Of a DNA stretch of 64,000 nt, positions 5,501 through 59,659 are shown in pieces. Below the pieces are notes generated by a model. The model ran no database searches. It was not told the DNA's origin and worked only from the letters and a program-made list of their open reading frames with translations. The translations under genes and the position numbers were made by a program. This stretch comes from Mobula hypostoma (taxonomy: Eukaryota). How positions within the stretch are numbered: position 1 is the stretch's first letter; each line of letters begins with the position of its first letter. The stretch covers positions 80,230,001 through 80,294,000 of the forward strand of contig NC_086097.1 of assembly GCF_963921235.1 (NCBI RefSeq), given 5' to 3'.

Positions 5501-7047
5501 TCTCAGAGTAATCATGATGAGAGCAAGACGCTGTATAAAACCAGAAATCAGTAAAGAACAATGCAGCTTTGTGGAAAACACTGGAACCAGAAATGCAATT
5601 TTCATGCTACGGATGATCTGTGATCGACCCATCCAGGTATAAAAAGACATCTACCTATGTTTCATTGACTATACAAAAGCTTTTGACACTGTTAGACAGC
5701 AAGATCTTCTGGAAATGCTTCAAGAGCTTGACAAAGATGGGAAAGATATATGTTTCTTAAGAAACTTATGCTGGGACCAGACAGCATTCTTCAGAATAGA
5801 AGGAGGAGTGAGTGAGTATGTGAATATCATGAGAGGAGTCAGGCAAGGTTGTGTCTTTTCACCAGACTTATTCAACCTGTATAGTGCAAATATCTTGAGA
5901 AGTATCAAAGACATCAAAGGATTCACAATTGAAGGCCATAATATAAGTAACAACAGAAATGCTGATGACATCGTACTAATAGCTGACTCAGAAACAAAAC
6001 TTCAAAAACTACTCACTATAGTGGCAGCAGAAAGTAATCACGGAGGCCTCTCAATCAACACCAAGAAGTCAGAAAGCATGGTCATCTCCAGAAAGATAAA
6101 TATCCCGCAATGTGTGATCAAGATCAGAAATACAAACATCAAACAATTCAACAAATTCAAATATCTTGGCAGCCTAATAACAAGTAATGGCAGGTGTGAC
6201 ACAGATATCAAATACAGAATAGCAATGGCGAAAGAAGATTTCCAAAAAATAAAGACCATATTAACAGACAGAAAGATGAGCACGTACACTAAAAACAGAA
6301 TACTGCAGTGCTACATTTATTCTGTCCTGACTTATGGAAGTGAATGCTGGACCATTTCTCCAGCAATGGAAAAGAGACTAGAAGCAGCTGAATTATGGTT
6401 CTACAGGATAATTTAAAAAATATCATGGACCACACGCACATCAAATGAAGTTCTCAGAAGAGCCCAAGCAGTTCGATCACTCATACCAACAATAAGAGGA
6501 AGACAACTCGGATTCCTAGGACACATCATGTGGAAAGATGAACTAGAAAAACTCATACTGTCTGGAAAGATTGAGGGGAGTAAACCTAGAGGAAGACCCC
6601 GGCTTATGTACATCAAAAGCATAGCCAGGTGGCTACACATCGAGGAAATAGAAGTCATCCAAAAAACGAAGGATAGATCTTTATGGAAAACCATGGTCAC
6701 CAACGTCCACATCGGATATGGTACCTAGACAGACAGACAGACGGACAGACATTCTGGCTGGCTGCAGGTTATCAGTGGATTTCCACAGGGGTCGGTGTTG
6801 GGACTGCTGCTTTTTATGATGTATGTCAATGATTTGGACTATGGGGTTTGTGGCTAAATTTGCCGATGATACAAAGATAGGTGGAGGAGCGGGTAGTGTT
6901 GAGGAAACAGAGCCTGTAGAGTGACTTAGATAGTTTAGGGGAATGGGCAAAGAAGTGGCAAATGAAATACAATGTTGGAAAGTGTATGGTCATGCACTTT
7001 GGTGGAAGAAATACAGGCAGACTATTATTTAGATGGGGAGAGAATTT
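2575..7047 (+). mobile_element. CR1 LINE ORF2 fragment (2575-3448 and 6762-7047) split by an RTE insertion
   Basis: AEELNAYFASVFT..KSPGPDGMHP, NYRP, SQHGFLKGKSCLTNL; the reading resumes after the RTE with PQGSVLG and KFADDTK. Confidence 0.9.
3449..6750 (+). mobile_element. Full-length RTE (BovB-like) LINE; single APE-RT ORF (about 3769-6728) with several stops and frameshifts
   Basis: VATWNVRTL..LGLSEIKW..IIQVYAPT, MGDFNAKVG, GSDH, RGVRQGCVFSPDLFNLY, NADD, FKYLGS; (GACA)n 3' tail; TSD ATTCTGGCTGG at 3438-3448 and 6751-6761. Confidence 0.95.
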
Positions 7048-12342: not shown

Positions 12343-12792
12343 ACCCTACACCTGTGAGTCGGCTGGGGTGATATACTGCATCCGGTGCTCCTGATGCGGC
12401 CTTCTATATATTGGCGAGACCCGATGCAGACTGCGAGATCGTTTTGCTGAACACCTACGCTCTGTCCACCAGAGAAAGCAGGATCTCCCAGTGGCCACAC
12501 ATTTAATTCCACGTCTCATTCCCATTCTGATATGTCTATCCATGGCCTCCTCTACTGTCAAGATGAAGCCACACTCAGGTTGGAGGAACACCACCTTATA
12601 TTCCATCTGGGTAGCCTCCAACCTGATGGCATGAACATTGACTTCTCTAACTTCCATTAATGCCCCACCTCCCCTTTGTACCCCATCCCTTATTTATTTA
12701 TTTATTAGGGTCTCGGCCCGAAACGTTGACTGTACCTCTTCCTATAGATGCTGCCCAGCCTGCTGCATTCACCAGAAATTTTTATGTGTGTT
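12343..12792 (+). mobile_element. Penelope fragment (GIY-YIG region plus tail) inside the Gypsy 5' LTR
   Basis: TCESAGVIYCIRCS..LYIGET..LRLEEHHLIFHLGSLQPDGMNIDFSNF; the tail lacks the CTGANGA box. Confidence 0.9.
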
Positions 12793-13015
12793 CCTTTTTC
12801 TTTTTTGTTTTCTTTATTAACCATATAGACAAATTCAGAATTATAAAGCTCAATCATTTAATCGCATATTGTGTACTTCTATTATTTCATGGTACTGATT
12901 TGTAACAGGGGACAGGTCACGCAACATCCACCCAAACGAGGTTTCTTAAGTTTGGCCAGGCCAGGGGCTATCATCCCCTATGTTAAGCTGCTAGCTGAAG
13001 TGAGAGTTACAATTG

Positions 13016-13035
13016 TGGGGGCTATGTTTGGGATT
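13016..13035 (+). promoter_or_regulatory. Degenerate tRNA-Pro primer binding site of the Gypsy element
   Basis: TGGGGGCTATGTTTGGGATT just after the 5' LTR, compared with the tRNA-Pro complement TGGGGGCTCGTCCGGGAT. Confidence 0.6.
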
Positions 13036-16000
13036 GATTCCATCGGATGCTGTGTGATTACCCTGAGTGAATTGTTAATTTGCCTGTTGAAGTTGCAATT
13101 GTGGGTGGATGTATGATAAAATGGCTCGCGCAGCTCTCATTTTAAGGCAGACCAGTGCAGATGTAGTGGTAGCTACGGGTGGAGATTTCAAAGGCAGGGT
13201 TCGATTGTTTCTGAGGAATGAGGGGAAAGAGTGGTGGGATTTGGAATGTCTAATTAGTCCACATCCCCCCGTGAAAAGTGAGAATTCTGAGTTGGTATCC
13301 GCCCTTCCCTCTCTGGCAAATGAATGGAAAAATCAGGTTGGGCGGAGCGGACCTCTCAGTTGTTAGATGAGTGACAGTGCTCTGATGATGAAAAGTGACA
13401 GAGATTGATTGAAGGTTTGAATGGGTGGGCCGCTGACATTGTGAGAACCGTCAGGCTGCAGTATCCCCTAGCAACCGTGAGTGATTACCTGGAAGCACTG
13501 GAAAGTTCTTTTGGCTCAACAGGAATCCCAATGGAGCTCAAGGTGGGGTTTCAGAACATGTGTCAGGAGAAGGGGGGGAAACTTTCTGCTTTTATTTTTC
13601 TGCTAGAGAGGCGGCTAAATTGCTTGTGGCACAGAGGGGTCATTCAGGCGGCTGAGGTGGATCAGTTAAGAATGGACCAGATAGCCAGGGGCGCCCAGTC
13701 CCAGGATCTGATTGCTTGGGGTCTCCGTCAGTCTCATAAGACATGCCCCCCTCCATCTTTTGTTGAGCTGATCAGAGAGGTACGGGAAGAGGAGAATGCA
13801 GAGGAGGCATGGTAGGACGCTGTCAGCAGGGTACAGTCCTCGGTAGCAGTCCCCTGCGGTGAACTGACCACAGATAGCCTACCCTGGGGAGCGGTAGAGG
13901 AGATTGCGGCAGAGTTGAGAACGGAGATATATCGGCTGTTATCAGCGGGTGTGACCCCCCCCCCCATATGATGGAGCTGATGGGGGTTGGATTCCCCAAC
14001 GGGACGAACAATGCGGGGGGCTGCTGGCAGCAGGTGTCACACCAGAAGGAGAGTGAGCCCCTGGGTACCTCAGCAAGGAGAGTCGCTGGGAAAACCTAGA
14101 GGAGACCCAGTGAGGGAACGGTCTGGTGTCTCTGGGGGAACACGTTCCCTGCAATGTACTAAGGAACCCCTGAAAGTGAAAGATCCTATTCCTGAAGGCT
14201 TAATTAGTCCATACTCCAGTATTTCGCTATGGATAGAGGGTATTTATGCCAAAGCCATACTCGACTGAGGGTCACAGGTCACGTTGTTGAACTGCTCGTT
14301 TTACAGCTGGTAACTGATGCATTTACCACTGACACCATTCAGGGCGCTGGAGATCTGGGGGCTTAGTGCTAGTGATTATCCATACAATGGTTATTTGTCA
14401 GTGAAGTTGGAGTTCTCGGAGACCAATGTGGGAGTGTCTGAGGTCTTTGATACAGTGATGCTGGTTTGTCCGGACCCTGTTGAGAAGGGCGACATTTCAA
14501 TTCTGGTGGGGACCAACACCCCTCTCGTGAGGAGGCTCATGGGGGCCTTGCAAGGAGAAGGCTGGTGAGAGCTTTCTGGGAACATTGTCCGTGCACCCGG
14601 GGATTTGAGCTGCTTTTGAGGAAGCGCGTGGCAGCATTGGGCCGGATACCGAATTTAGACGAGGGACTGTGTGGTTCATCCAGTCGAAGCCAATGGTAGT
14701 ACGGCCCAGGGAAGTAGCGAGAGTGATGGAGACCCCCAAATTTCCCGGAGTGCCCGAGGGCGAAGCCCTCTTAGTGGACACTCTGGAAGACCACGAGGGG
14801 GAGTCGGGATTTCCTGCTGGGGTACTGGTGAGGCCCGAATTGCAGAAGCCCTCGGTTGTACAGGAACACAGGATGGCAGTGATTGTCAGGAACACTACGA
14901 AGAGGGAGGTCACCTTCAAGCGGGGGATGCCCCGGCGCATTTGTTCCCGGTGACGGTAATGTCTAGTGCCGCTGTGAGGCACGCCGGGGAGAAACTATCG
15001 GAAAAGGGGGGAGAGTTGACCGTTGAGTCGTTCAACTTCGGGGACTCCCCGGTTCCTGCAGGTTGGAAGAGGAGGTTGGTAGAGAAGATGTTGAAGCTGG
15101 AAGGTGTCTTTTCCACTGGCGAGTTTGATGTGGGTTGTTCCAAGAGCACGCGTCACACTGTCTGGGTGACTGAGGATATCCAGTTCAGAGAAAGATCGCG
15201 GTGACTGGCCCTTGCAAAGGTGGAGGATGTTCGGCAGCATTTGTGTAAGTTGAAGGAAGCTGGGATCATCACCGAGTCCCGAAGCCCCTATGCGTTCCCA
15301 GTAGTAGTGGCCCGGAAGAACAGGAATGTACATGTGTGTGGACTATAGGACACTGAACAGGCACACCGTCCCTGACCAGTATACTGTCCCGAGGATCGAA
15401 GATGCGCTGGCCTGTCTGAGTGGTGCGAAGTGGTTCAGTGTGCTGGACTTGAGGAGTGGATATTACCAGATCCCCATGTGTGAGGCTGACAAAGAGAAAA
15501 CGGCATTTATATGTCCTCTGGGACTTTTCCAGTTTGAAAGGATGCCCCAGAGCATCTTAGGAGCTCCTGCAACCTTTCAGCGGCTCATGGAGAAGACAGT
15601 GGGGGGATATGAACTTGCTTGAGGTATCGGTATATCTGGATGACCTCATAGTATTTGGATCCACTTTGGAAGAACATGAAGCAAGGCTGCTGAAGGTGCT
15701 GGGCTGCCTGAAAGCTGAAGGGTTAAAACTTTCCCTGGACAAGTGCCAGTTCTGCCAAACGTCTGTTAGCTATGTTGGGCACATAGTCTCATGAGATGGA
15801 GCAGTTACAGATCCTGCTAAGGTAGAAGCGGTTACCACTTGGCCAAGACCCCAGATGGTGAATGCCCTGCACTCGTTCCTCAGGTTCTGTGGTTACTATC
15901 AGAGGTTCATGAAGGGCTACGCGAAAGTGAGTCACCCGTTGAATCAGCTTCTGTGCAGTTACCCTCCCTTGGGGAAGAAAGGACAGGAGGATGGAGAGCA

Positions 16001-19000
16001 TCTTAACCCGTTAGAGCCCTTTGGACCGAGGTGGGAAGTAAAGTGTGAGGAGGCCCTTCAGTCGCTGAAGAAGCTGCTGACTCAGGTGCCGGGACTGGCT
16101 TTTGTGGACCCCCGATTATTGTATGTACTGCACACAGATGCCAGACGTGAGGGACTAGGGGGCATTCTGTATCAGGATCAGGGCTCTGGGTTGAGGCCCG
16201 TTGCATTTGTCAGCCGGAATCTGTCACCTTCTGAGAAAAACTATCCCACACACAAGTTGGAATTTCTGGTGTTGAAATGGGTGGTGGTGGATAAGCTGAA
16301 TGACTACCTCTACGGGGCCAAGTCTGAGGTGAGGACGGACAACAACCCCCAACTTGTATTCTGGCCTCAGCGAAACTGGATGCCACAGGCCATCGGTGGT
16401 TGGCGGCGTTGTCTGCCTATGATTTCAGCCTGAAGTATCGGACGGGAAGCAGCTACATTGATGCTGATGCTTTGTCCCAACAGGCGCATGAGGGACTGGT
16501 CAGGGACGAAGAGCGGGAGATCGTTCCTGCCCTGGGGGTGAAGGCCCTGTGTCAGTTTGCCATCACCATGAAGGCAGAGGAAAAGGAGGGGCAGGATCGA
16601 GCAGTGGATCAACTGGGAGCTTCTGATGACGCCATCCCCCAAGTTTACTGTAACCTGGCTGCTCTGAAGACAAATCAGCTGCCGGAATTGAGTTCTGGGG
16701 AAGTTGCAGCTGCTCAGCGAGATGATCCTGGCATTGGTACCATTTGGGCTGTGGTTGAAAAGGAAGACATGGCTCAGGTGGAGAAGACAAAACATGTGTC
16801 AGTGCCTCCATTACTGTGGGAATGGCCTAGGTTGGAGTTGAAGAACCAACTCTTATACGGGGTTACATCAACCCCAGACTGACCCCGGCGTTGCCAGCTG
16901 GTTCTGCCCGAGAAGTATCGGAGGATGTCGTTGAAATCACTTCATGATGATTCCGGACATTTGGGGGTGAAAAAGACTGATGGATTGCTCAGAGAACTGT
17001 TTTTCTGTCCCCGAATGAAGTCAGAGGTCGAAGAATACTGCCAGTTGTCCAATCGCTGCATATGGCGGAAGACACTGCCTACGCGAGCAGCTCCCTTGTC
17101 CCACTTGCAGGGTGCAGGGCCTCTGGACCTGGTGTATATGGAGTTCCTGTCAATAGAACCTGATCCCAGCAACACAGCAAATGTCTTAGTCATCACAGAC
17201 CACTACACCAGATATGCTCAGTCTTTTCCTACCAAGGACCAGAGGGTGTTGACAATGGCAAAAGTGTTATGGGAGAAGTACTTAATCTTTATGGCCTTTC
17301 CGGGTGGATACATAATGATCAGGGATGGGATTTCGAGAGTAGACTCATCCATGAGTTACTGGGTATGCTTGGAGTTGAGAAGTCGAGGACCATGCCCTAT
17401 CACCCACAGGGTGATCCCCAGCCAGAGAGGTTTAATCAGACCTTGCTAGACATGCTCAGGACCCTGGAGATCAGCAAGAAGAGCAAATGGAGTCAACATA
17501 TTGGGCATCTGGTTCACTCTTGCAACTGTACACGAAATGAAGGTACTGGGTACTCGCCATATTATCTGATGTTTGGGTGTGAGGCGAGGTTGCCTATTGA
17601 CCTTTGTTTTGGGACTGACAAGGGTGACTTACCACTGAAGACTTATCTGAAGTATGTGTCTGACATGAGAAGAGAATTGAAAAGGGCTTATGAATTAGCT
17701 GGGGTGACAGCTGCCAAGCAGAACCAAGGAAATAAAAGGAGGTATGATCAAAAGGTGAGGTTCTCCCAACTCCTGCCGGGAGACAGAGTCTTCATAAGGA
17801 ATTTGGGGTGACCTGGAAACCATAAGTTGGCTGACCGCCGGGCAGCTACGCCCTATGTGGTGGAGAGTCAGATGCCAAACCTACCAGTTTTCCGGGTGAG
17901 ACCAAAGGATGGGAATGGACTGTTAAGATTCTCCATCGAAACCACCCGCTGCCTCTGGGACAAGAGGTGCAGGTAGACCCAGAGCCTGATTTGGAGCCTA
18001 CACCTAGTAAGAGGACGCTGCGGAAATGCGGAGCGACTGCAGGGCCCACAGTGGGAGAGGTTAGGCCGGTCCCCACCCCTGAGGGGGATACTGATTCAGT
18101 GGATGAGGGCCAGGATGTGTGATATATACCGCCTTTCACTAACTCTCCACTGATTGAGGAAGAGACTCCTGGCCCTTCTCCCGTTGAGTCAGGTGAGTGG
18201 GGGGGGGCTATCTGTGGGCAGCCTGGGTTGCAGTGGGACTCTGCAGGGGAGGCCATGGGACAGATGGGTATGAGTTAGAGGTGGGCCAAGTGATAGGGCG
18301 GGGTGGCCACACCATGTAGACTGGAAGTATCCCCAGTAGTGTCCGAACCTGAAGAGTTAGGTGAGGGGGTGCAGAGTGTGACCCCTACCATTTTGGGGAG
18401 CTTTGTCATTGCCTTGTGTTGGACTTGGATTGGACTTTGTGTTGTGCAGGAAGGGCTGGCAAATTATCTCAATGTAATGAGAACATGACTGAATTTGGTG
18501 TGGGGAACAGTGTAATGGCTTCTCTGTAAGGTTCCAGTGCTGATGTAATGGTTTCTCTGTAGCAGCAATGTTTGGGTTATGACTAGAGATAACGGGGCAT
18601 GCTAGCTAATGAACAGGGTATCTTTTTTCTTGTGTGTCTTGGAGCTGGGAATTCACGGGTTTTTCTTTTGGCCGGGGAGAGATGAGGAGGGAAGACGTGA
18701 CCGGAGAGAGTTGGGAGACTGCCGGACAGAGTGGACCTGGAGTGAGGATCCGAAGGTCAGTGACGATTGGAGGAGGTCGATGGTGGACGAACGGCCTTAT
18801 CAGTGAGGTCCAACCTTGCACAATAGACTGTTTCATGAGAATGGGCCCTTTTCCTTTTTTGTTTTCTTTACTAACCACGTGGTCAAATTCGGAATTATAA
18901 AGCTTAATCGTTTAATCGCATATTGTGTACTGTTTGTTATTTCAGGGTACTGATTTGTAACAGGGGACACATCGCGCAGCATCCACCCAAACGAGATTTC

Positions 19001-19225
19001 TTAAGTTTGGCTGGGCCTGGAGATATCATTCCCTATATTAAACCGCTAGCCAAAGCGAGAGTTACACACATAAGCATTTGTCAATGATGAACAAATCCTT
19101 CAACATATTATGTAAAATTTTCTGGAATATGTAAAAGCTTGCTGTGATTAGACAACTCATTTACTTCACAATCAGAGAAAATTACAGTAGCCCCTAAAAA
19201 CTGATATGGGAATTAGAATCTGAGT

Positions 19226-32113: not shown

Positions 32114-33387
32114 AAACAACAGGAATTCTGCAGACGCTCTTAAACTTTTCAATAATTTTAAGTTCCCTGGCCCCCACCGCTTTATTTTCCGCCCCATCTG
32201 CTCTCAGGATGAGGACAAGGGAGATGTCCTCCTTTTTTAAAGAAAGGGGCTTCCCTTCCTCCACCATCAACTCTGCTCTCAAACGCATCTCCCCCATTTC
32301 ATGCACATCTGCTCTCACTCCATCCTCCCGCTACCCCACTAGGAATAGGGTTCCTCGGTCCTCACCTACCACCTCACCAGCCTCTGGGTCCAACATATTA
32401 TTCTCCGTAACTTCCGTCACCTCCAACGGGATCCCACCACTAAGCACATCTTTCCCTCGCCCCCCCCCGCTTTCCGCAGAGATCGCTCCCTACGTGACTC
32501 CCTTGTCCATTTGTCCCCCCCATTCCTCCCCACTGATCTCCCTCCTGGCACTTATCCTTGTAAGCGGAACAAGCGCTACACATGCCCTTACACTTCCTCC
32601 CTTACCACCATTCAGGGCCCCAAACAGTCCTTCCAGGTGAGGCAACACTTCACCTGTGAGTCGGCTGGGGTGATCTACTGCGTCCGGTGCTCCCTATGTG
32701 GCCTTCTACAGATTGGTGAGACCCGACACAGACTGGGAGACCACTTTGCTGAACACCTATGCTCTGTCCGCCAGAGAAAGCAGGATCTCCCAGTGGCCAT
32801 ACATCTTAATTCCACATCCCATTCCCATTCTGACATGTCAATCAACGACCTTCTCTACTGTAAAGATGAAGCCACACTCAGGTTGGAGGAACAACACCTG
32901 ATATTCCGTCTGGGTAGCCTCCAACCTGATGGCATGAACATTGACCTCTCTAACTTCCGCTAATGCTCCACCTCCCCCTCGTACCCCATCCGTTATTTAT
33001 TTTTATACACACATTCTTTCTCTCACTCTCCTTTTTCTCCCTCTGTCCCTCTGACTATACCCCTTGTCCATCCTCTGGTTCCCCCCCCCTTGTCTTTCTC
33101 CCTGGGCCTCCTGTCCCATGATCCTCTCATATCCCTTTTGCCTATCACCTGTCCAGCTCTTGGCTCCATCCCTCCCCCTCCTGTCTTCTCCTATCATTTT
33201 GGATCTCCCCCTCCCCCTCCCACTTTCAAATCTCTTACTAACTCTTCCTTCAGTTAGTCCTGATGAAGGGTCTCGGCCTGAAACGTCGACTGCACCTCTT
33301 CCTAGAGATGCTGCCTGGCCTGCTGTGTTCACCAGCAACTTTGATGTGTGTTGCTTGAATTTCCAGCATCTGCAGAATTCCTGTTGT
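32114..33387 (+). mobile_element. Penelope-like element 3' part: RT C-terminus, GIY-YIG endonuclease and pLTR; short inverted tail copy at the 5' end
   Basis: FFKERGFP..FTCESAGVIYCVRCSLCGLLQIGETRHRLGDHFAEH..LRLEEQHLIFRLGSLQPDGMN; 32114-32138 is an inverted copy of 33364-33387. Confidence 0.92.
33255..33292 (+). ncRNA. Minimal type I hammerhead ribozyme (Penelope pLTR)
   Basis: TAGTC | CTGATGA | AGG-GTCTCGG-CCT | GAAAC | GTC | GACTG. The core boxes are intact, stem I is TAGTC/GACTG, and helix III is the loopless palindrome ACGT. Confidence 0.8.
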
Positions 33388-39079: not shown

Positions 39080-40630
39080 AGTGAATAAGCACTGGGGCCT
39101 GACAGAATATTCCCCAGGCTGCTCCACAAGGCAAGGGAAGAGATTGCTGAGCCTCTGGCTAGGATCTTCATGTCCTCACTGTCTACAGGAATGGTACCGG
39201 AGGATTGGAGGGAGGTGAGTGTTGTCCCCTTGTTCAAAAAAGGTAGTAGGGATAGTCCGGGTAATTAAAGACCAGTGAGCCTTATGTCTCTGGTGGGAAA
39301 GCTGTTGGAAAAGATTCTCAGAGATAGGATCTATGGGCATTTAGAGAATCATGGTCTGATCGGGGACAGTCAGCATGGCTTTGTGAAGGGCAGATCGTGT
39401 CTAACAAGCCTGATAGAGTTCTTTGAGGAGGTGACCAGGCATATAGATGAGGGTAGTGCAGTGGATGTGATCTATATGGATTTTAGTAAGGCATTTGACA
39501 AGGTTCCACACGGTAGGCTTATACAGAAAGCCAGAAGGCATGGGATCCAGGGAAGTTTGGCCGGGTGGATTCAGAATTGGCTTGCCTGCAGAAGGCAGAG
39601 GGTCGTGGTGGAGGGAGTACATTCGGATTGGAGGGTTGTGACTAGTGGTGTCCCACAAGGATTGGTTCTGGGACCTCTACTTTTCATGATTATTATTAAC
39701 GACCTGGTTGTGGGGGTGGAAGGGTGGGTTGGCAAGTTTGCAGACGACACAAAGGTTGGTGGTGTTGTAGAGAGTGTAGAGGATTGTCAAAGATTGCAGA
39801 GAGACATTGATAGGTTGCAGAAGTGGGCTGAGAAGTGGCAGATGGAGTTTAACCCGGAGAAGTGTGAGGTGGTACACTTTGGAAGGACAAACTCCAAGGC
39901 AGAGTACAAAGTAAATGGCAGGATACTTGGTAGTGTGGAGGAGCAGAGGGATCTCGGGGTACATGTCCACAGATCCCTGTAAGTTGCCTCACAGGTGGAT
40001 AGGGTAGTTAAGAAAGCTTATGGGTGTTAGCTTTCATAAGTCGGGGGATAGAGTTTAAGAGTCACGAGGTAATGATGCAGCTCTATGAAACTCTGGTTAG
40101 ACCACACTTGGAGTACTGTGTCTAGTTCTGGTTGCCTCACTATAGGAAGGATGTGGAAGCATTAGAAAGGGTACAGAGGAGATTTACCAGGATGCTGCCT
40201 GGTTTAGAGAGTATGAATTATGATCAGAGATTAAGGGAGCTAGGGCTTTACTCTTCGGAGAGAAGGAGGATGAGAGGAGACATGATAGAGGTATACAAGA
40301 TATTAAGAGGAATAAATAGAGTGGATAGCCAGCGCCTCTTCCCTAGGGCACCACTGCTCAATACAAGGGGACATGGCTTGAAGGTAAGGGGTAGGAAGTT
40401 CAAGGGGGATATTAGAGGAAGGTTTTTTACTCAGAGAATGGTTGGTGCGTGGAATGCACTGCCTGAGTCAGTGGTGGAGGCAGATACACTAGTGAAGTTT
40501 AAGACACTACTAGACAGGTATATGGAGGAATTTAAGATGGGATGTTATATGGGAGGCAAGGTTTGAGGGTCGGCACAACAATGTGGACTGAAGGGCCTGT
40601 ACTGTGCTGTACTATTCTATGTTCTATGTT
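39080..40630 (+). mobile_element. Relatively young CR1, 5'-truncated
   Basis: Long open frames QHGFVKGRSCLTSL..YMDFSKAFDKVPH..PQG..KFADDTK; (TTCTATG)n tail; nearly identical to 52624-53505. Confidence 0.95.
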
Positions 40631-47669: not shown

Positions 47670-49578
47670 CAGGCTGTTGTCATGGATGACTTCCACATTC
47701 CTAATATTGATTGGCACCTCCTTAGTGCAAAAGGTTTAGACTGGGGCAGAACTTGTTATGTGTATACAGGAAGGATTCCTGATGCAATTCCTAGACAGGC
47801 CGACTAGAGGAGAGGCCAATACTGGATCTCGGGCTTGGCACTGAACCTGGTCAGCTGTCAGATCTCTCAGTGGGTGAGCATTCTGGAGAGAAAAAAAACA
47901 CAACTCCCTGACCATTACCATTTGCTTTTGGAGAGAGAAAAGAGCAGATGGGTATGGAAAGCATGTAATTAAGAGAGGGGGAATTATGATGCAGGAACTT
48001 GGAAGCATAAATTGCAACAGATGTACTCAGGGAAATACACAACAGAAATGTGAAGGTTATTTAGGGAACACTTGCATGGGGTTCTGAATAGGTTTGTCCC
48101 AATGATGCAGGGAAAGGAACCATGTCTGACAAGAAATATGGAACATCTGGTTAGAGAAAGAAGAAGCAGAATTAAGTTTTAGGAAGCAAGGATCATACAG
48201 AGCTTTAGAGAATTACAGAGTAGTGAGGAAGGAGCCTAAGAATGGACTTAGGAGAGCTAGAAGTGGACATGAGAAAGTCTTGATGAGTAGGATTAGGGAA
48301 AACCCCGTCAGTCTACATATGAAGAGCAGAAGGATGACTAGAATGAAGGTTGGATTGATCAGAGGTAAAAGAGGAAACATATACCTGGAGTCAGAGGAGG
48401 GAGGGGAGGTCCTTAATGAATACTTTGCTTCAGTATTCTCCCACAAGAGGGATCTTGACAAATTTTAGGGTAGCATAGGATGGGCCATTATGCTGAAACA
48501 TGTAGATATTAAGAAAGAGGATGTGCTGGAATTTTGGAAAAACGTTAGTATAGATAAGCCTTTGGGGTGAAACAGGATACACCCCAGATTACCACGGAAA
48601 GAGATCACTGCACCTTGGTGATGATCTTTGCATCCTCGTTGGGCACAGCACTAGTAGCAGAAGATTGGAGGTTGGCAAATGTTATTCCTTTCTTCAAGAA
48701 AGGTAATAAGGATAACCCTGGGAATTATAGACCAGTGAATAGGTCAGTGATAGGCAAACTATTGGAGAGGATTCTTCGAGACAGGACTTACGAGCATTTG
48801 GAGAAGCATAGTCTGATAAGGGATAGTCAGCATAGCTTGGTGAGGGGCAGGATGTACCTGACGGGCTGATTGAATTCCTGAGGAAGTGACAAAACAAACT
48901 GATGAAGGCAAAGCAGTGGATGTGGTGCATTTGGATTTTTGTAAAGCATTTGACAAGCTTCCCCATGGTAGGCTTATTCAGAAAGTCAGGAAGAATTGGA
49001 TCAAGGGAAACTTGGCTGTAAGGATTCACAATAGGCTTGACCACAGAAGGCAGAGGTTGGTAGTAGATGGAACGTATTCTGTCCGGAGGTCCATGACTAG
49101 TTGTGACCCTCAGGGATTGGTTCTGGGATTGCAGCTCTTTTAATTTTTATCAAGGACTTGGATGAGGAAATGCAAGGATAGGTTAGTACCAATTGCAGAG
49201 AACACAAAGCTTGGTGGTGTTATGGATTGCATATACGGTTGTTGTAGATTACAATTGGACATTGATAGGTTGAGAAATGGCAGATGTTCAGCCTGGAAAT
49301 GTATGAAGTGATACATTTTGGAAGGCTGGACATGAAGGCAGAGTACAGGGTTAATGGCAGGATTCTTAGCAGTGTGAAGGAATATCGGGGTCTCGAGGTC
49401 CGTGTCCATAGACCCTCAAAGTTACCATGCAAGTTGATAGGGTGGTTAAGAAGGTGTATGGAGTGTTGGCCTTCAGTAGTCAGGGGATTGAGTCTAGCAC
49501 TCGTGAGATAATATTGCAGCTCTGTAAAGCTCTGGTTAGACCACACCTAGCATACTAAGTTCAATTCTGGTTGCCTCA

Positions 49579-50041
49579 CGTTACGGGGAGGCAGATTCGC
49601 AGAGTTGGTAATTGGGTCAGAAGGCACTGAATGCAAGTAAGCATGTTAACTATTTATTTACAAACAAACAAACAGTGGAACACTCAACCAAGCATCTAAG
49701 TCAAACATGTACTTTTCTAAGTCCTCCAAGTTACATAACTACAACATTAAACATTCAACAAACAGGTACTTCATCTCTCTGTGTGCATGGGTCTTCCCAC
49801 CTGCAGCACACTTACCCAATGGTTCTTTAGCCCTCGTCACTGCCCAGTCTGAAGGGAGCCCCTAGCAAAGAAAAAGAGCCCCGCCAGTGCTATTCTTATA
49901 CCTGTCGGGGGGGGGGGGGCCTGAAACTGGAAGCCTCCAACCAATGGGAGAGAGCTGGCACATCAATCAAATGGGCCAATCAGTGACCAGCACGTCGGAA
50001 GCAGCTTTCGACTGGCCGGTAAGTTACCCCTTCACTTTATA
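49579..50041 (-). repeat. ERV 3' LTR
   Basis: Homologous to 58556-59092; preceded on the minus strand by the purine-rich GAAGGGTGAGA; TATAAGAATAG TATA-like box on the minus strand. Confidence 0.85.
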
Positions 50042-50050
50042 TCTCACCCT

Positions 50051-51280
50051 TCAAGAGAGGTGACACTGTGACAATTCGGTCCTCTGGCTAGTATAACTCC
50101 CTTCTAAACAACATATAGAATGCAAAACTACAATACCCAGCACTATAAGCCCAATAGTCCCCACCCAGTGTATTATGGTAGTCCACTTGCTTCCCCCTGG
50201 GGTGTAATAGCTATGGAACATGTCCCTCACTTTCTGAATATCATCCACTGACTGTCAGATGTGATTAATATTCCCTGACTTGTTAAGAATGTAGATGCAG
50301 CATTCTTGACTGATAACAGCACAAGTATCATCTTTCTCTGCGAGCAGGTAATCTAAGGCCATCTGATTCTGCAAGCCAGCCGTTCAAATAGCCATCATTT
50401 TGGCCGATACTCAGATCAGCGCATCCTCCGCGTGGTTAAATGCTATGGCTGTCTCGTTAGGTAGTACCTCTATCACAGGGGTCATACATATCAGTTCCCG
50501 GGACAGTCTGGATGCACCATACCGGGAGAGCTATTATCCAAAGCCTTTATGCCACTGTGATAGCCCTCTTCCTACGCGGACCATCAGGGGCAGGGTGCTC
50601 ATCCAGTGCACTGAAGTGGACTATGTACGACAGCCCATAGCAGCAATCGTAACCCCCTTCCCACGGGGAGCCCTGGGTAGGCCCGGGAGACCCATATCCA
50701 GTAAGTGCTATTCAGTGTCCAGGGAGTGTCACCGCACCGTTCCGCGTAGACGCAGTCATCTCAGGATACTGCTTCACTGTGTCCCACTGACTGGTTGGAC
50801 CTGTGCTTATCACACTGCATACACCAACATACCTTTTCCTTCCTCGTCGGCTGGGCAGTCACTTTCAGAGTCGGGACCTTTGGGTTAAACAAGTCATAAG
50901 TAGGGATACACCAGCCCTTAAAGCACTCACTCCACCGAGGGTCACTAGGCCTCAAGTACTTTAAGGCCGTTACTACACGACAGGGTGAGGATGACTGGAG
51001 TGAACTATTCCCTCCCTGCTCCCCCCAAAACAGAATACCAAAGTCAGTGGAGATGGACAAGTTGCCCCAACAGTCTTTTTCCTTGTCATTAAAGGGGACT
51101 GGTATTGATGGTAACCCGTATGCAGCGTGGGCCGGAGCCCACATACAAACCCAGCAATCCGACATGTTACTCCTGTTTGCATGTTCATTTGCCATCCACA
51201 AGAATGTGTTATAGGAGCTCCCACCGCAGGTTGAGATCATCACCATTGCCGTCAGCATCCATCACTGTGCCATTCCACAG
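50051..51280 (-). pseudogene. env: ERV env pseudogene (gamma-type SU/TM)
   Basis: NTFLWMANEHAN..SDCWVC (CXXC about 51156); furin site RRKR 50576-50565; ISD LQNQMALDYLLA about 50374; CAVISQECC (CX6CC) about 50323-50297; hydrophobic anchor IIHWVGTIGLIVLGIVVL; several stops. Confidence 0.92.
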
Positions 51281-51710
51281 TGTAGGAGGGACAAACTCCT
51301 CCCTCCTGGTTGACCATTGGGTACTTAGACATGTCATTCTCTGTTCCCCTGGTAACACTACCCACTGCCTATTTCCGGGTCCACCTGGCACAATCCCCCA
51401 TGTCCCACTGGCCCTGTGATTGCTGCACCCAAACCTTCCCCAATTCCTTTTCCAACTCCACCTCCTTGAGCTCCGGAGGGTCCGACACTGCTGAACGCTG
51501 CGGTATCAGTGACCCACCCAGTCTCGCTGGCCAGGAGTTCAGGACTCCATCCCTTGCTGCAGCACATCCAGCCACGTCTGGAGGGTATGGGTAGTAGCTT
51601 AACCTGTTACTTCAACGAACCATTCATGTGATCGATCTGTCCTTCCTCCTGTGGGTAATATGGGATGTGAAGCACCCATGAAATGCCAGACTCATCTCTC
51701 TCCAGAAACA
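51281..51710 (-). pseudogene. pol: ERV pol 3' end (integrase core end and C-terminal domain)
   Basis: GISWVLHIPYYPQEEGQIDHMNGSLK, TLQTWLDVLQ..LNSWP and GKVWVQ..GPGNRQWVV resemble ERV-L-type integrase. Confidence 0.8.
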
Positions 51711-51714
51711 AATT

Positions 51715-52424
51715 TAATCCATGCTTGTTCAAGGAATGAGCCGATGTCTGGTTGATATAAGCGGCAGGCCAGATTAAGAAGGTGGGGCCTCCAACTCGCT
51801 GTTCTGTGAGGTTTAATCATCTCCGTGCTGCACTGAAGCTGTGGCCTGCAACTAATGGGCTCCTGGACCAGCTGCGGTGATGAACTGGATCCATGGCTGC
51901 GGACTTACTTTCATGGACTTTAGTTCTGATTGTTCAGGTCACTGTTCCATGACATTTACTCAAGCTCTGCACTGAACTATAGGGCTCTCTTTGCAGACTT
52001 CAGAACAGAAACGCTGTTTGCTAGCGGTTACTGTTTGCATGATGTTCTTTTTTCATTGCACATTGGGTGGTCAACAGGCTTCTTTTTTATGGGTTATTTA
52101 GTTTTTTATGGTTTTACTGTGGTTTTATGGGTATGATGTGTTTTTTATTCTCTGCATGTTGGGTGTTAGACAGTCTTCTATCTATAGTTTTTTTTTGGGC
52201 TTCTTTGCTTCGTGGCTGCCTGTTAGGAGACAAATCTCAAGGTTGTATAATGTGCACATACTTCAATAAGAATATACTTTGAACTTATTTGTTTACTTTT
52301 TATTATTTGCATGACTTATTCTTTTTTGAACATTGAGTGTTTGACAGTCTCTTTTAAATAGGTTCTATTTGGGCTTTTTTGTTTTATGGCTACTTGTAAG
52401 AAGAAGAATCTCAAGATTGTACAT
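51715..52424 (+). repeat. Composite repeat with Rex-type tails
   Basis: Two AATCTCAAG(G/A)TTGTA tail motifs; the second is completed at 54122-54170. Confidence 0.5.
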
Positions 52425-54121
52425 CATCACGGTGAGTGCTGGCGATGACTGACCCAGGTGCGGAGGAATGGAGACTCCCATGTAGAGACGGAAACAAGAG
52501 GTTACACATAGGAATTCCATCAGAACATCGTTGGCACGATTGAGCGACTCCACAAGACAAATCATTCTCCACACGAGGACCCCACGATGAGCCTTAAATG
52601 GGAATCCATTTGAAATAATCATAGTTGGTGGTGTTGTAGATAGTGTAGAGGATTGTCAAAGATTGCAGAGAGACATTGATAGGATGCAGAAGTGGGCTGA
52701 GAAGTGGCAGATGGAGTTCAACCTGGAGAAGTGTGAGGTGGTACACTTTGGAAGGACAAACTCCAAGGCAGAGTACAAAGTAAATGGCAGGATACTTGGT
52801 AGTGTGGAGGAGCAGAGGGATCTCGGGGTACATGTCCACAGATCCCTGAAAGTTGCCTCACAGGTGGATAGGGTAGTTAAGAAAGCTTATGGGGTGTTAG
52901 CTTTCATAAGTCGAGGGATAGAGTTTAAGAGTCGCGATGTAATGATGCAGCTCTATAAAACTCTGGTTAGGCCACACTTAGAGTATTGTGTCCAGTTCTG
53001 GTCACCTCACTATAGGAAGGATGTGGAAGCATTGGAAAGGGTACAGAGGAGATATACCAGGATGCTGCCTGGTTTAGAAAGTATGCATTATGATCAGAGA
53101 TTAAGGGAGCTAGAGCTTTACTCTTTGGAGAAAAGGAGGATGAGAGGAGACATGATAGAGGTGTACAAGATAATAAGAGGAATAGATAGAGTGGATAGCC
53201 AGCGCCTCTTCCCCAGGGCACCACTGCTCAATACAAGAGGACATGGCTTTAAGGTAAGGGGTGGGAAGTTCAAGGGGGATATTAGAGGAAGGTTTTTTAC
53301 TCAGAGAGCGGTTAGTGCTTAGAATGCACTGCCTGAGTCAGTGGTGGAGGCAGATACACTAGTGAATTTTAAGAGACTACTAGACAGGTATATGGAGGAA
53401 TCTAAGGTGGGGGCTTATATGGGAGGCAGGGTTTGAGGGTCAGCACAACATTGTGGGCCGAAGGGCCTGTACTGTGCTGTACTCTTCTATGTTCTATGTT
53501 CTATACATAAAACCCATGCTAGTCACAATTAACTTAACAAGATAAAATAGAAAGCACAATGACATAATGACTCTAGTTAAGACAACAATTAGTAAACGTA
53601 TGTGCTTGAGAAGCCTAGAAGTCCAACACTCTACAGCTTGCTGCAGTGGTCATGGCAGTGCCTCTGTCCCTGAGCCTGGGACCTGACAGCCCAGAAAGCC
53701 TTCGGGAACTTGAGACAAGGCTGGGAAATTCAATACAGACCTGATGTTTTCAAGACAGGGCTGGAAAATTTGAAACATTGCATATAACTCAGAAACATTG
53801 AGTATCCTGGGAAACCGAATGCTTCTTGTTGACCCAAAGAACCCTGAAAAAAATCTTGAACATACACTGGAGAAGCTCGGAACATACACTTGGAATTTAC
53901 ACTCAGAACATAAACTTGATACGCTCGGAACATAGACTTGGGACACTTGGGACATGAACTGAGTAAAGAAGGCATCTTAGCCTCTAGCCAACAAGATTAA
54001 CCAGAAAGCACAAGGGCTGAACGACTTTAGTTAAGACACAAATTAGTAAACACAGGTGTTTGAGAAAACTAGAAGCTCGATGCTCTACGCCTCACTGCAG
54101 AAGTCTACAGGGCTCATGGCA
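52425..54121 (-). mobile_element. Second copy of the non-autonomous LTR family (3' LTR split by a CR1)
   Basis: Direct repeats 53506-53659 and 53990-54121; 52425-52620 is homologous to the LTR end at 25180-25307; interior of GAACATA(C/G)ACTTG repeats. Confidence 0.7.
52624..53505 (+). mobile_element. Young CR1 3' fragment
   Basis: 219-aa open frame WAEKWQMEFN..LVRPHLEYCVQFWSPH; (TTCTATG)n tail; CATA flanks. Confidence 0.95.
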
Positions 54122-54214
54122 GTATACTGTAGAGGGCACATACTTTGATAATAAATATACTTTGAGCTTTGACACTCTTCATGTGGGAAGGTGGAATCCT
54201 TCAACATGGGTAGA

Positions 54215-55150
54215 CACCTGCAACCCTGCAACCAGCACGTAAGTGCCACTACAAAGAAGGCACAGCAGAGCCTCGATTTTCTAAGAAGTTTGTGCAGGTT
54301 CAGTGTGCCATCTAAAACTTTGACAAGCTTCTATAGATGCACAGTGGAGAGTGTCCTGACTGGTTGTATCATGGCCTGCTATAGAAACACCGAAGCCGAG
54401 GAAAGGAAAAGCCTGCAATAAGCAGTGGATGCAGCCCAGTCCATCACAGGAAAAGTCCTCCCCACCACTGAGCACATCTACAAGGAATGCTGTCACAGGA
54501 AAGCAGCAGGCATCAACAAGGAATCCCACCATCCAGGCCATGCTCTCTTCTCACTGCTGCCATCAAGGAGTTACTGGAGCCACCATCGATGCTGAACTAA
54601 TTCCACCTATGGACTCACATTCAAGAACTCTACAACTCATATTCTCAGTATTATCTATAGTATTTACTTACATATTAGTACTGCAACGCGCCCATACAAA
54701 AAGATCTTTAATGAGAACATTAAATGAAAGGAAACTTAAATTCCTGGGCTATGTCATCAGAAAGGGAGAAATAGATTGCCTTACATTACAAGGCCGTATG
54801 CCTGGGAAACGCGGAAGAGGAAGGCAAAGAAGAAAATATATGGACACTGTGAAAGAACTAACAGATCTAAGTGTGTGAGATATCATTGACGCTGCGTAGG
54901 ATTGTTCGATGTGGAAAGCCATGATCGCCCAAACATGTAACACGCAAGGCACATGAAGAAGACTTACATATTTACTTATTTTTATTTGCATTTTGTCTTC
55001 TTTTGTATGTTTGTTATTTGTTCGACTTTGTGTGTAGTCCTCTAATGATTCTGCTGTACTTCTTTGTTCTCCTATCAGTGCCCACAAGCAAATGAATCTC
55101 AGGGTGATACATACATACTTTGATAATAAATTTGCTTTGAACTTTGAACT
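54215..55150 (+). mobile_element. Rex1 3' fragment
   Basis: KKAQQSLDFLRSL..FYRCTVESVLTGCI; Rex tail at about 55090-55150. Confidence 0.85.
54677..54961 (+). mobile_element. RTE 3' fragment (second family)
   Basis: RKLKFLGYVIRK..GKRGRGRQRRKYMD; GAAGAAG tail; TSD ACTTACATATT at 54666-54676 and 54962-54972. Confidence 0.9.
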
Positions 55151-55424
55151 TCCTTCAAAGTCTTTGCAAGTAACTGCAAAACTCAGAACAAACAATTAAT
55201 TCCCACTGTGGAAAACTTCAACACATTTTTCAAAGAATAAGGAAAGGAAAGATTGCATGGCGGCCCTGACACGTTAGCATACTCACACAGCTGCTTAAAG
55301 ACACCGCCCTCCTGCAAGTTCACTTCACCAAGCTGTGAAATATTTCAATCAGTCACCTTTTCTGTTGAACCGTAGGATTAATCCACTCTTCCGATACAGA
55401 TTTAACAAACTAACGTAGACATTG

Positions 55425-55475
55425 TGTGCACGCGCACACACACACAGACACAGACACAGACACACTCTCTCTCAC
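55425..55475. repeat. (CA)n/(CACAGA)n/(CT)n microsatellite
   Basis: Visible directly in the sequence. Confidence 0.9.
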
Positions 55476-55690
55476 TCAAGTGCAGGGCAAACGATCCCCT
55501 CCCTTTGGGGGTGGGTGGTACGGGAAGGCCCCACCCACCACCCCAACCCTGCTGCTGCTGGAGGTCTTCCAATGCCTTTTGGAGGGACTCCAGCAAGGGA
55601 TATAGGTTACCCTGATGAGGAATCCTGCGAGGGATCAAATGTACCCTAATCTGTGGAGAGCTTAGAGGATGAACCTCCTCCCTTAACAGT

Positions 55691-55768
55691 TCCCTTCAGA
55701 ACAGTGTTTGCCCATCTCTTTGGACCAACTGACCCATGTTCAACTGCTGTTCACATGGAAGCCTTTCC
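55691..55768 (-). rRNA. 28S rRNA-derived fragment (about 78 nt, non-functional)
   Basis: Minus strand GGAAAGGCTTCCATGTGAACAGCAGTTGAACATGGGTCAGTTGGTCCAAAGAGATGGGCAAACACTGTTCTGAAGGGA matches the conserved LSU segment ..GGGTTCCATGTGAACAGCAGTTGAACATGGGTCAGTCGGTCC... Confidence 0.9.
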
Positions 55769-55871
55769 AGCAACCGAATGGCTGCGTTTATGGTACCCCC
55801 GAATGCCAGTCTCATTAACGACAGCACCATCCTTTCAAGTGGGGAGCTGCTTTCATTACTAAATACCCTAC

Positions 55872-57388
55872 TATAGAGTCACAGTGAACTACAGCACAAA
55901 AGCAGTCCCTTTGGCTAATCTAGTCTGTGCCAAACCATTTAAACTGCCTACTCACATTGACCTGCACCTGAACCATTTCCCTCCATACCTTTCCCATTCA
56001 TGCACCTATCCAAACTTCCCTTAAACCTTAAAATTGAAATTGCATCCACCACTTGCACTGGCAGCTAATTCCACACTCTCACCACCTTTCACCCATAACC
56101 CATGACCTTAAACCTTGGTTGTAGTGTCACCCATCCTCAGTGGAGAAAGCTTGACTGCATTTACCTGATCTATACCCCTCATAATTTTGTATATTTCTAT
56201 CAAATCTCCCTTAAATCTTCTACATTCTAGGAAATAAATTTCAAACCTATTCAATCTTTCCTTTTAGCTCAGGTCCTCCAGTCCCGACAACATCCTTGTA
56301 AATTTTATCTGTACTCTTTCAGCTATTTTACATCTTTTCTGTAAGTAGATGATCAAAACTGCACACAATACTCCAAATTAGGCCTCACCAACATCTTATA
56401 CAACTTCAACATAACATCCCATCTCCTGCACTCAACACATTGATTTATGAAGGCCTACGTGCCAAAAGCTTTCTTTACGACACTGTCTACCTGTGACAGC
56501 ACTTTTAGTGAATTATGGACCTGTATTCCCAAATCCCTTTGTTCTACTGTACTTGCCAGTGTCCTTCCGCTCACTGTGTAAGATCTTACTTGGTTGGTGT
56601 TCCCAAAGTGCAACCCTTCACATTTGTCTGCATTAAATTTCCTCTGCCATTCTTCAGCTCATTTTTCCAACTGGCCCAGATGCCTCTGGAAGCTTTGATT
56701 GTCTTCCCCATTGTCCACTGTACCCACAATCTTGGTGTCACCTGCACATTTGCTGGTCTAGTTAACACATAATCATTCAGATTATTGATATAGATGACAA
56801 ACAACAACAGACTTAGCACTCAACTCAGTGGCACTCTACCAGTCACAGGCCTCCAGTCAAGAGTGACAGCCATCTACCACCACTTTCTGGCTTCTCCCAC
56901 AAAGCCAATATCTAATCCAATTTACTACCTCATCTTGAATGCCAAGTGACTGAACCTTTTGACCTAACTCCCATGTGGGACCTTGTCAAATGCCTTGCTG
57001 AAGTCCAGGTAGCCAACATCCACTGCCTTGCCTTCATCAGCTTTCCTGGTAACTTCCTCGAAAAACTCTCTATGATTGGTTAGACACCACCTACCACGCA
57101 CAAAGCCATGCTGAGTATCACTAATTAGTCCCCTGAGTATCCAAATATCCATATGTCCGGTAACTTAGAATATCTTCTAATAACTTTCCCACCAGCCTTT
57201 AATTTCCAGGTTTGTTCTTAGTGCCTTTCTTAAACAGCAGAACAACTTTAGGTATCCTCCAATCTTCTGGTACCCAACCTGTTGCTAAGGATGATTTAAA
57301 TATCTCTGCTAGCACCCCTGCAATTTCTACACTTGCCTCCCACAGGGTCCGAGGGAAGGCCCTGTCAGGCCCTGGGGATTTGTCCACC
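55872..57388 (-). mobile_element. CR1 5'-truncated insertion in the ERV gag
   Basis: VDKSPGPD..VPEDWR, QHGFVRGR..LDFSKAFDKVPH; 3' tail at about 55872. Confidence 0.9.
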
Positions 57389-58533
57389 AAGGCTGGAGTT
57401 AGTTTGGAATCCTCTGGCAGGCTATCAATATCACTGTTAAAACCTGTAATTAGAGCCCACTAGCGAGGGGCTCTCATCCCTTCCTCTACTGTGCTCCACT
57501 CAGCCCAGGACTTTAAATCCCACTCAAGGAGAGAAGGTACCTGACATTGACCACCGCTGTCATCCGATCCCATAAGGATTTATTACCCTCATGGGGAGCG
57601 AGCAGTATCAAAGTGTTATTGACCACGTGTTGGGACAATAGCTGCCCCCTACTAGATAGGCTTATTCCGGTGCCTCCCTCTTCCCATATCCTCAACAACC
57701 CATGTGGCCAGAGGCTTTCCTGGCTTCTGCCTGCAGCTATCCTGCAATCCCACCAGTTCCTTGGCAGAGAACTCTCATGGTGTCTGTCATCTCAGAAGGG
57801 CCTATTGTACTACTCCCTCCACATTCCTCCTCAGCCTCCTCCTGTCCTGTGAGGGTCAGAGGGTCCAATGGCCAAAGCCCCCATGCTGGATATGGGACTA
57901 ATGGCTCGTACTGTCTTGGGTGCGTCAGTGGGAGGACGATCATTGCAAGGATCACAGGATTCTGCTTTACTCACGCTCCCCCATCACCATCCAGCCAGCT
58001 GGCCCTATCTCCCATCCACACGTTGGGATCATCCTCCCACAGCATCAGGGCTGGGACCTTAATGGGATCCGGTTGCCAATTAGCCCATCGGGCAACCTCT
58101 AATTGCTGCACCTTCACTAGCCGACAGGCTATCTCTGTACCATTGTCTTCTAGCTCTTTGGCCTGGGTATATGCCAGTCAGGCTCTTCCCCCATGGTGCA
58201 GCACCTCCACCTCATTTTAGAGTTGCTCTCTCCTGCTCACTCTGTGCGATCATCTTGTGCTGGTGCTTTACGATGGCTGCCAGCAGCCCTTTGGCTCGTA
58301 TTCTTGTCTGGGAACCATACCTTGTTTAAGATGGATACAATGGTGTGTCTGATTCCCAATGAGCCAGATTGTCTGACCAATCCACTGGTATGCCATGTTC
58401 TGCCAGTAGACTGGTGAGACTGCTGAATCCAGCACTGATGGCGCTCCACCCTGGGACTCAGCCTCCTCCCACGAGCGGTTCTCTTGCTTGTTCTTCTTAT
58501 CCTTGAGCTCTTTAAACTCCTGTTACACCCACT

Positions 58534-58553
58534 GAATCCCGCCGACTACACCG
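58534..58553 (-). promoter_or_regulatory. tRNA-Ser primer binding site of the ERV
   Basis: CGGTGTAGTCGGCGGGATTC, 2 nt after the 5' LTR; 17/20 match to the tRNA-Ser complement TGGCGTAGTCGGCAGGATTC. Confidence 0.85.
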
Positions 58554-58555
58554 TG

Positions 58556-59092
58556 TGTTATGGAAAAGCAGATTCCATAAATAGGACAGAAGATACTGAT
58601 TGTGAATAACCGTTACCTATTTACTTACAAACAAGCAGTGAAACACTCAGACAAAGATTTATGTCAAATAAGTTCTCACCTAAGCCCCTAAGTTACAAAA
58701 CTATGATGTTAAGTATTCAATAACATTTCTAACTTAAATATGTACTTTGTTAAGTCCATCCAACTTACACAACTGCAACGCTAAACATTCAACAAACATA
58801 ATACTTATCTCCAAGTGTTTACACGGACCTTCCTATCCATAGCACAGTTTCTCAATGTTTCTTCAGTCTTGGTCATGCCCCAGTCTGAAGACAGCCCCTA
58901 AGGAAAAAGAGACAGAATGTCCCACCCACACTATTCTTATAGCCCTGGGGGTGCCCAAAACCAGAAGCAGGAGCCATGGCATGAAAATCAGCCAATGGGA
59001 GAGGGTTGTCTCACCCTTTGCATGGGTCAATTAGTGACCAGCATGGTGGAAACAGCTTTTGACCAGCAGGTAAGTTAACCCTTCATGTTACA
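58556..59092 (-). repeat. ERV 5' LTR
   Basis: TGTAACA...TAACA on the minus strand; homologous to the 3' LTR; internal duplication of about 65 bp. Confidence 0.85.
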
Positions 59093-59659
59093 CCTTATTA
59101 TACAAACAATGCGAAAGCTTTAGAGGGTATACAGAGGAGATTTACCATGATGCTCCCTGGATTAGAAAGTATGTCTTATGAGAATAGGTTGAGCAAACTT
59201 GGCTTTTTCCTTTTGGAGCCAAGGTAAAACATAAATCGATTGATAGGGGTGTACAAGATGATAGGAGGCATAGATAGAATGGATAGCTAGTGACCTTTTT
59301 CCCCAGGGTAGAAAATGACTATTACAAAGGAGCATAACGTTAAGGTCACTGGGGCAAGTACAGGGGGATGGTGTCAGAAGTAGGTTTTTGTTAAAAAACA
59401 CAGAGTGGTAGGTGCGTGGAACACACTGCCAGGGATGGTGGTAGATATAGCTACATCAAGGACATTTAAGAGACCCTTACATTGGCACATGGATGAATGA
59501 AAAATGGAGGGATATATGGGAGAGAAGGGTAGATTGACCTTTGAGTAGGCTAAAGGGTCACAATTTTGTGGGGAAAGGCCCTGTACAGTTTTGTACTGCT
59601 CTCTGTTCTGTTATCATGGGGTTTGTCTATTTTGATCTTTCCCCTGGCTTGGGTATTGA

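Follow-up and report, generated by a model that had tools for sequence, protein, structure and literature searches.

A decayed fragment of 28S rRNA lies in viral sense inside the gag region of an endogenous retrovirus of Mobula hypostoma, and the best reading of its origin, held here with moderate confidence, is a double template switch onto co-packaged rRNA during reverse transcription. The window, i.e., the whole stretch of DNA analysed, comprises 64,000 nt (assembly GCF_963921235.1, contig NC_086097.1, positions 80,230,001 to 80,294,000), and the provirus occupies positions 59092-49579 on its minus strand as an old, dead copy of 9.5 kb with paired LTRs. The rRNA-derived segment, called here the patch, is flanked on both sides by sequence of this element, both LTRs of which are present, the immediate 3' flank being weakly assigned (Table 1).

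Identity of the rRNA patch

When positions 55640-55830 were searched with cmscan, LSU_rRNA_eukarya was matched on the minus strand from 55768 with 35.1 bits and an E-value of 3.1e-7, a value that refers to this 191-nt search and rises to ~1e-4 when converted by hand for 64 kb. Rfam sets the gathering score at 50, which this match does not reach, and the patch was missed both by a gathering search of the whole window and by an E-value search of 1.4 kb. The reference used for identity is the pan-eukaryote Rfam consensus, and by-eye counts in the cmscan alignment give matches to this consensus in 42 of the first 51 columns and in 37 of the 43 columns of the core (columns 9-51). Moreover, one pair that departs from the consensus keeps its helix through compensatory letters, and stem pairing persists as far as approximately column 70. 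The patch is a decayed 28S rRNA-derived sequence with its structure kept, and the identity given to it by the first-pass annotation holds on the E-value, the core columns and the compensatory pair. It originates from the middle of the molecule (model position 1499 of 3401). Regarding the extent of 78 nt first assigned to it, the start at 55768 is reproduced, while the 3' limit near 55691 is reasonable but inexact, as it falls in a low-information and poorly modelled part of the Rfam model.

The patch contains no CpG in its 78 nt, and its observed/expected ratio of TpG plus CpA is 1.75, compared with 1.26 in the window, a combination that fits old methylated DNA. When viral, genome and metagenome contigs were scanned by exact patterns for a eukaryotic 28S locus, 0 matches were returned. 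Weak Rfam matches to miRNA and snoRNA families near the patch were dismissed as chance.

Anatomy and age of the surrounding provirus

Since the provirus lies on the minus strand, the minus-strand 28S match within it is in viral sense, which bears out the orientation originally claimed. The two LTRs differ in 131 of 449 aligned columns (K2P 0.38), the 5' LTR having 537 nt and the 3' LTR 474 nt, with an apparent internal duplication of ~60 nt at 58578-58760. The provirus is nested in an older CR1-like copy, whose halves (49103-49579 and 59093-59528) are contiguous with a 6-nt overlap. Given the duplicated target site, equal in four of five bases, the contiguous halves of the host LINE and the divergence of the LTRs, both LTRs belong to one old insertion. 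The inserts inside the provirus are younger, one of them being 94.5% identical to a copy at 39755-40630, and the nested series of host CR1, provirus and inserts is usable for relative dating. In a comparison of words from 55480-59100, with one sample for each species label, the runs of the second label hold 0.46-0.49 of the words and those of the first 0.71-0.76, while runs of three other organisms (C, D and E) contain 0.05-0.08. The share held under the second label suggests that the provirus predates the split of the two species.

Table 1. Features of the provirus and of the rRNA patch, in proviral order
Feature	Position	Strand	Remarks
Provirus TSD, 5 bp	left 59093..59097, right 49574-49578	(-)	4/5 bases equal
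5' LTR	58556..59092	(-)	~70% identical to 3' LTR; TG..CA ends
Primer binding site, serine type	58535..58553	(-)	16/19 bases equal to XtERV-S PBS (by eye)
gag 5' part and middle	57388..58460	(-)	stops and frameshifts; 5' limit approximate
CR1-like LINE fragment, later insert in gag	55873..57390	(-)	65-79% identity to window copies up to 57328
Capsid end of gag	55759..55872	(-)	ends AAIRLLERL; by-eye colinearity with frog ERVs
Decayed 28S rRNA fragment	55691..55768	(-)	Rfam RF02543 from model position 1499, E 3.1e-7
Near-tandem copy, 12 nt	55679..55690	(-)	copies the final 15 nt of the patch, minus 3 nt; two exact 6-mers repeat
Putative gag end and protease start	55480..55678	(-)	LYPLLESL ... 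ALHLS, in frame with upstream gag
Microsatellite and later LINE/SINE-type inserts	51800..55478	(.)	self-matches within the window
Integrase core remnant	51604..51687	(-)	15/28 residues equal to bullfrog ERV (by-eye translation)
Broken env	50100..51261	(-)	CWVC in SU; immunosuppressive domain and CX6CC in TM
3' LTR	49579..50052	(-)	paired with 5' LTR

The CR1-like LINE fragment that interrupts gag has its 5' limit placed near 57390 from translation. Upstream of it, a class III-type MHR is recognisable by eye at ~57675-57735, with 12 of 20 residues equal to those of the bullfrog ERV (PMC8278194, supplement 6) and one frameshift. The gag remnant gave no Pfam or database match, its homologue searches returned 0 of 127 and 0 of 186 candidates, a PDB sequence search gave 0 matches, and an Atlas search with a gag piece found bacterial clusters only, all under 0.9. 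The integrase remnant likewise has no Pfam match. For env, TLV_coat was found with an E-value of 0.0013, below its cut-off, and its neighbours in the Atlas, at 0.92-0.95, are clusters of retroviral Env proteins, with a low recognition value. Neither retroviral RT nor RNase H was detected on the proviral strand of 51800..55478 (0 Pfam families in three minus frames), and dUTPase was undetectable in the provirus as well. Nearly all of pol is apparently absent from 51800-55480, the interval that separates the integrase remnant from the putative protease start, and the recognisable internal proviral sequence amounts to only ~3.3 kb; this absence could reflect a non-autonomous lineage or a later deletion. 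As far as its sequence can tell, the provirus appears organised like a class III virus with a class I env, as in XtERV-S; the class III placement is putative, RT being undetectable in this copy. Scans for related loci with gag and env pieces confirmed 0 of 589, 40 and 5 pattern matches.

LINE-type repeats abound in the window, which holds further mobile elements. At 12793-19066, on the plus strand, direct repeats 6054 nt apart and 86-89% identical enclose broken ORFs that match RNase H and an integrase zinc finger; this second LTR element looks Gypsy-like. Two copies of an ORF (32349-32963 and 12343-12704) are 88-90% identical and have no Pfam match; their motif is presumably that of the GIY-YIG nuclease of Penelope-like elements. 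Moreover, a broken LINE at 3658-6416, which we take to be RTE-like, carries endonuclease-like and RT ORFs (RVT_1, E 8e-20).

Junctions and origin of the patch

Past the CR1-like insert, gag resumes colinearly, with ~48 codons between a shared upstream landmark and the end of the capsid helix, compared with 50 in XtERV-S. By-eye alignment places the motif AAIRLLERL at the final capsid helix of XtERV-S (HEAATLLGQL) and of the bullfrog ERV. The start of the patch coincides with the last three codons of this final helix, and its first ~10 nt, overlapping gag, can be read as gag as well as 28S; 7 of these 10 Rfam columns match, and 5 of the first 8, which is compatible with imperfect microhomology at the 5' junction but no proof of it. 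In both frog viruses a conserved box follows the capsid helix (RRQLFFDLLQSGVPKPEIDGMPT in XtERV-S, by-eye translation), and no such box was seen by eye in any of the three frames of the 393-nt island. The distance from the helix to the protease landmark is 90 codons here, including the patch, versus ~147 and ~145 in the frog viruses. With a weak downstream landmark and only two distant frog viruses as references, it is probable that ~80 gag codons are missing. A Gag that is shorter in this family than in the frog viruses may be an alternative to such a loss, and the loss is perhaps separate from the patch because later insertions and an apparent large pol loss have also affected this copy.

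Over 136 codons that include both junctions, a single frame has only one stop, at 55698 inside the patch, compared with 8 and 10 stops in the other two. The motifs AAIRLLERL and LYPLLESL, quoted in the first reading of this DNA, are both present in that frame. Over the flank behind the patch it is the sole stop-free frame for 76 codons. This continuity gives modest support, since 107 of 2000 shuffles equal this single stop per 136 codons in any frame and 324 of 2000 have some frame as open as that of the flank. The 136-residue read-through found 0 matches among 1.84 billion representatives. As for the gag end and protease start that had been proposed behind the patch, their frame and letters stand, and their identity is putative, as the flank has a weak by-eye likeness to the gag and protease ends of XtERV-S and no database match. 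At the putative gag-pro border, a GC-rich hairpin was rejected as a recoding signal, being no more stable than shuffles (z -0.66). The 12-nt near-copy adjoining the patch, of a pattern that occurs in 6 of 1279 50-nt tiles of the window and was noticed after the fact, is read as later slippage that would blur the 3' junction. Neither patch junction has an A run longer than 3 beside it, and no TSD above chance surrounds the patch, in agreement with the absence of both that was first described. Nevertheless, the missing TSD is weak evidence, because neither the CR1 inserted in gag nor a young neighbouring CR1 shows one.

In the proposed double template switch, a 28S rRNA fragment of the host would have been enclosed in the virus particle and, during minus-strand synthesis, the reverse transcriptase would have quit the viral RNA late in gag and copied ~70-80 nt of 28S. 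A short imperfect match would have helped the enzyme to switch back to viral RNA where the capsid region ends, and ~240 nt of gag, the putative RNA-binding box among them, would have been skipped by the jump. Germline integration of this defective chimera may have been direct or may have followed copying in trans, and the integrated copy would later have received the CR1 insertion and decayed. This origin was suggested by the first-pass annotation, and the anatomy fits it insofar as the patch is in sense, internal and tailless, gag has probably been lost and the frame is kept, the absence of a TSD saying little. In particular, the patch is in sense within a provirus with paired LTRs and a TSD, and replacement, partial cargo and the lack of both tail and TSD would fit the signature of LTR-mediated capture. 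On the other side, no sister provirus was found in the searches with the read-through and with gag and env pieces, and by chance alone the sense orientation would be obtained in 1 of 2 cases and the frame in 1 of 3.

The relative age of the patch also bears on the double template switch. The rRNA core differs from the consensus in at most 6 of 43 columns, as against ~15% for each LTR. Approximately four of these six differences are presumably the normal vertebrate 28S state, which would leave ~2 of 43, or ~5% decay. Set against the ~15% per LTR, this ~5% gives a binomial value of ~0.03 by hand for a core chosen post hoc, and the core may be fresher than the LTRs and hence younger than the provirus.

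This possible freshness favours the main alternative, a substantial possibility though not a probable one: a provirus free of the patch integrated, gag later suffered a break, and the repair cost sequence and brought in filler templated on 28S RNA or rDNA, either by end joining or by aborted, tailless reverse transcription by a LINE. The locus has undergone many later events (the CR1 in gag, the pol inserts, the missing pol), the local duplication lies at the 3' junction, and LINE inserts of the window are without visible TSD. Moreover, LINE machinery moves 28S pieces of 50-482 nt in mammals, according to the data available from PMC13174262. However, repair after integration needs sense orientation and conservation of the frame by chance (~1 in 6 jointly), poly-A is missing, and the patch is separated from the CR1 tail by 104 nt of gag, with no LINE junction. 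A 28S/LINE chimera was rejected on the same ground, the nearest LINE end being this 3' tail and gag lying between, with no direct join to a LINE 5' end.

A bolder reading would be a replicating, pol-deleted class III retroviral lineage in rays, in which an in-frame peptide encoded by rRNA replaced the RNA-binding box of Gag and which spread to many loci helped by intact viruses; this is an unlikely, if conceivable, outcome. Quite improbable is a host-RNA mosaic in which the patch and the adjoining 200 nt downstream are both foreign, i.e., a non-autonomous element that lost the end of gag and pol in one event of several jumps. The weak likeness of the downstream flank to frog Gag and protease ends, its lack of database matches and the undetectable pol would suit such cargo, and captures from several sources are known (PMC5131818, in the cases it presents). 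Nonetheless, the flank matched no host protein either (0 among 1.84 billion representatives), and its frame continues stop-free into the protease-start-like segment, gag and pro sharing a frame in XtERV-S as well in the published account consulted.

A copy of a dispersed 28S-derived SINE is very improbable. The SINE28 elements of mammals are often found inside other mobile elements, but in the excerpts of PMC4994717 they derive from the 3' end of 28S and carry tails and TSDs. The patch begins at mid-molecule, is tailless and has no second copy within the window, which makes this source unlikely. Finally, a chance or convergent likeness of gag to 28S is hardly credible: the sub-threshold score, the two wider searches that missed the patch and a 12-nt word in common with the bullfrog ERV gag (by eye) speak for it, whereas the E-value, the core columns and the helix pairs retained through compensatory letters speak against it, as does the fact that the helix with the bullfrog word has already been assigned to gag upstream of the patch. 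In the bullfrog ERV this word is part of the final capsid helix (PMC8278194, supplement 5); it is probably a chance match, but it is a hint that this part of 28S finds ready microhomology in some class III gag genes.

Significance and comparison with known systems

As a single dead copy, the chimera has no evident function. If confirmed, it would be a germline fossil of the most abundant cellular RNA entering a retroviral particle as a template for a jump, and it would extend the known capture of mRNA and 7SL to 28S rRNA in a little-studied class III retrovirus of fish. It would also suggest that some of the rRNA scraps scattered in vertebrate genomes were spread by LTR elements. The process of LTR-mediated capture is already known (PMC5131818, from the sections available), as is the capture of 28S by influenza virus (PMC7812872) and LINE-1 (PMC13174262), both in the portions at hand. 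No literature case was found of a 28S fragment in an endogenous retrovirus, although older virology, which is thinly covered, may describe such recombinants; the accessible part of PMC2645402 contains nothing on rRNA.

Regarding its organisation, the provirus resembles XtERV-S and the Pyxicephalus ERV as described in the parts of PMC8278194 available: it shares a serine PBS (with XtERV-S), a class III-type MHR, a 5-bp TSD, the lack of a visible Cys-His box and an env with CXXC near the SU start, an ISD and CX6CC. Unlike the present copy, in which RT, RNase H and dUTPase are undetectable and the host is a fish, these viruses have intact or full-length genes and no rRNA patch in that account.

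Short 28S pieces fixed by reverse transcription, mostly in sense, are also seen in the 28S/LINE-1 chimeras (PMC13174262) and in SINE28 (PMC4994717), as far as the excerpts of both papers go. However, those pieces derive preferentially from the 3' part of 28S and are either fused to LINE 5' ends or furnished with tails and TSDs, whereas the patch is internal to a provirus and comes from mid-28S. Dispersed LSU fragments are rare in hg19, where the passage in PMC4994717 counts 109. An in-frame 28S piece acquired through polymerase template switching is likewise known from the 28S insertions in influenza H7 haemagglutinin (PMC7812872), but those insertions, in the text available, involve an RNA-dependent RNA polymerase, are pure insertions under positive selection and leave no germline record.

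Closer parallels are offered by retroviruses themselves. Retroviral junctions patched with host RNA, including 7SL, are covered in the passages available from a review (PMC4997597), and the 7SL recombinant is like the patch in that a short non-coding host RNA splints a non-homologous retroviral junction. The cases in these passages are experimental or clinical exogenous viruses, whereas the provirus with the patch is a germline fossil; moreover, the same passages name 5S among the packaged RNAs and do not name 28S. The chimeras formed by LTR-mediated retroposition in the accessible sections of Tan et al. 2016 (PMC5131818), including HERV-K/FAM8A1 and maize Bs1 (cited there), have ORF replacement, partial cargo, no tail and no TSD listed as marks of the process. 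Like the patch, they hold partial host RNA within an LTR element, have neither poly-A nor TSD, and are attributed to a proposed double template switch. Their cargo is mRNA, recognised by its lost introns, and the word 'rRNA' occurs 0 times in the main text, whereas the cargo here is rRNA, the RNA origin of which is unprovable via splicing because 28S is an intronless Pol I RNA.
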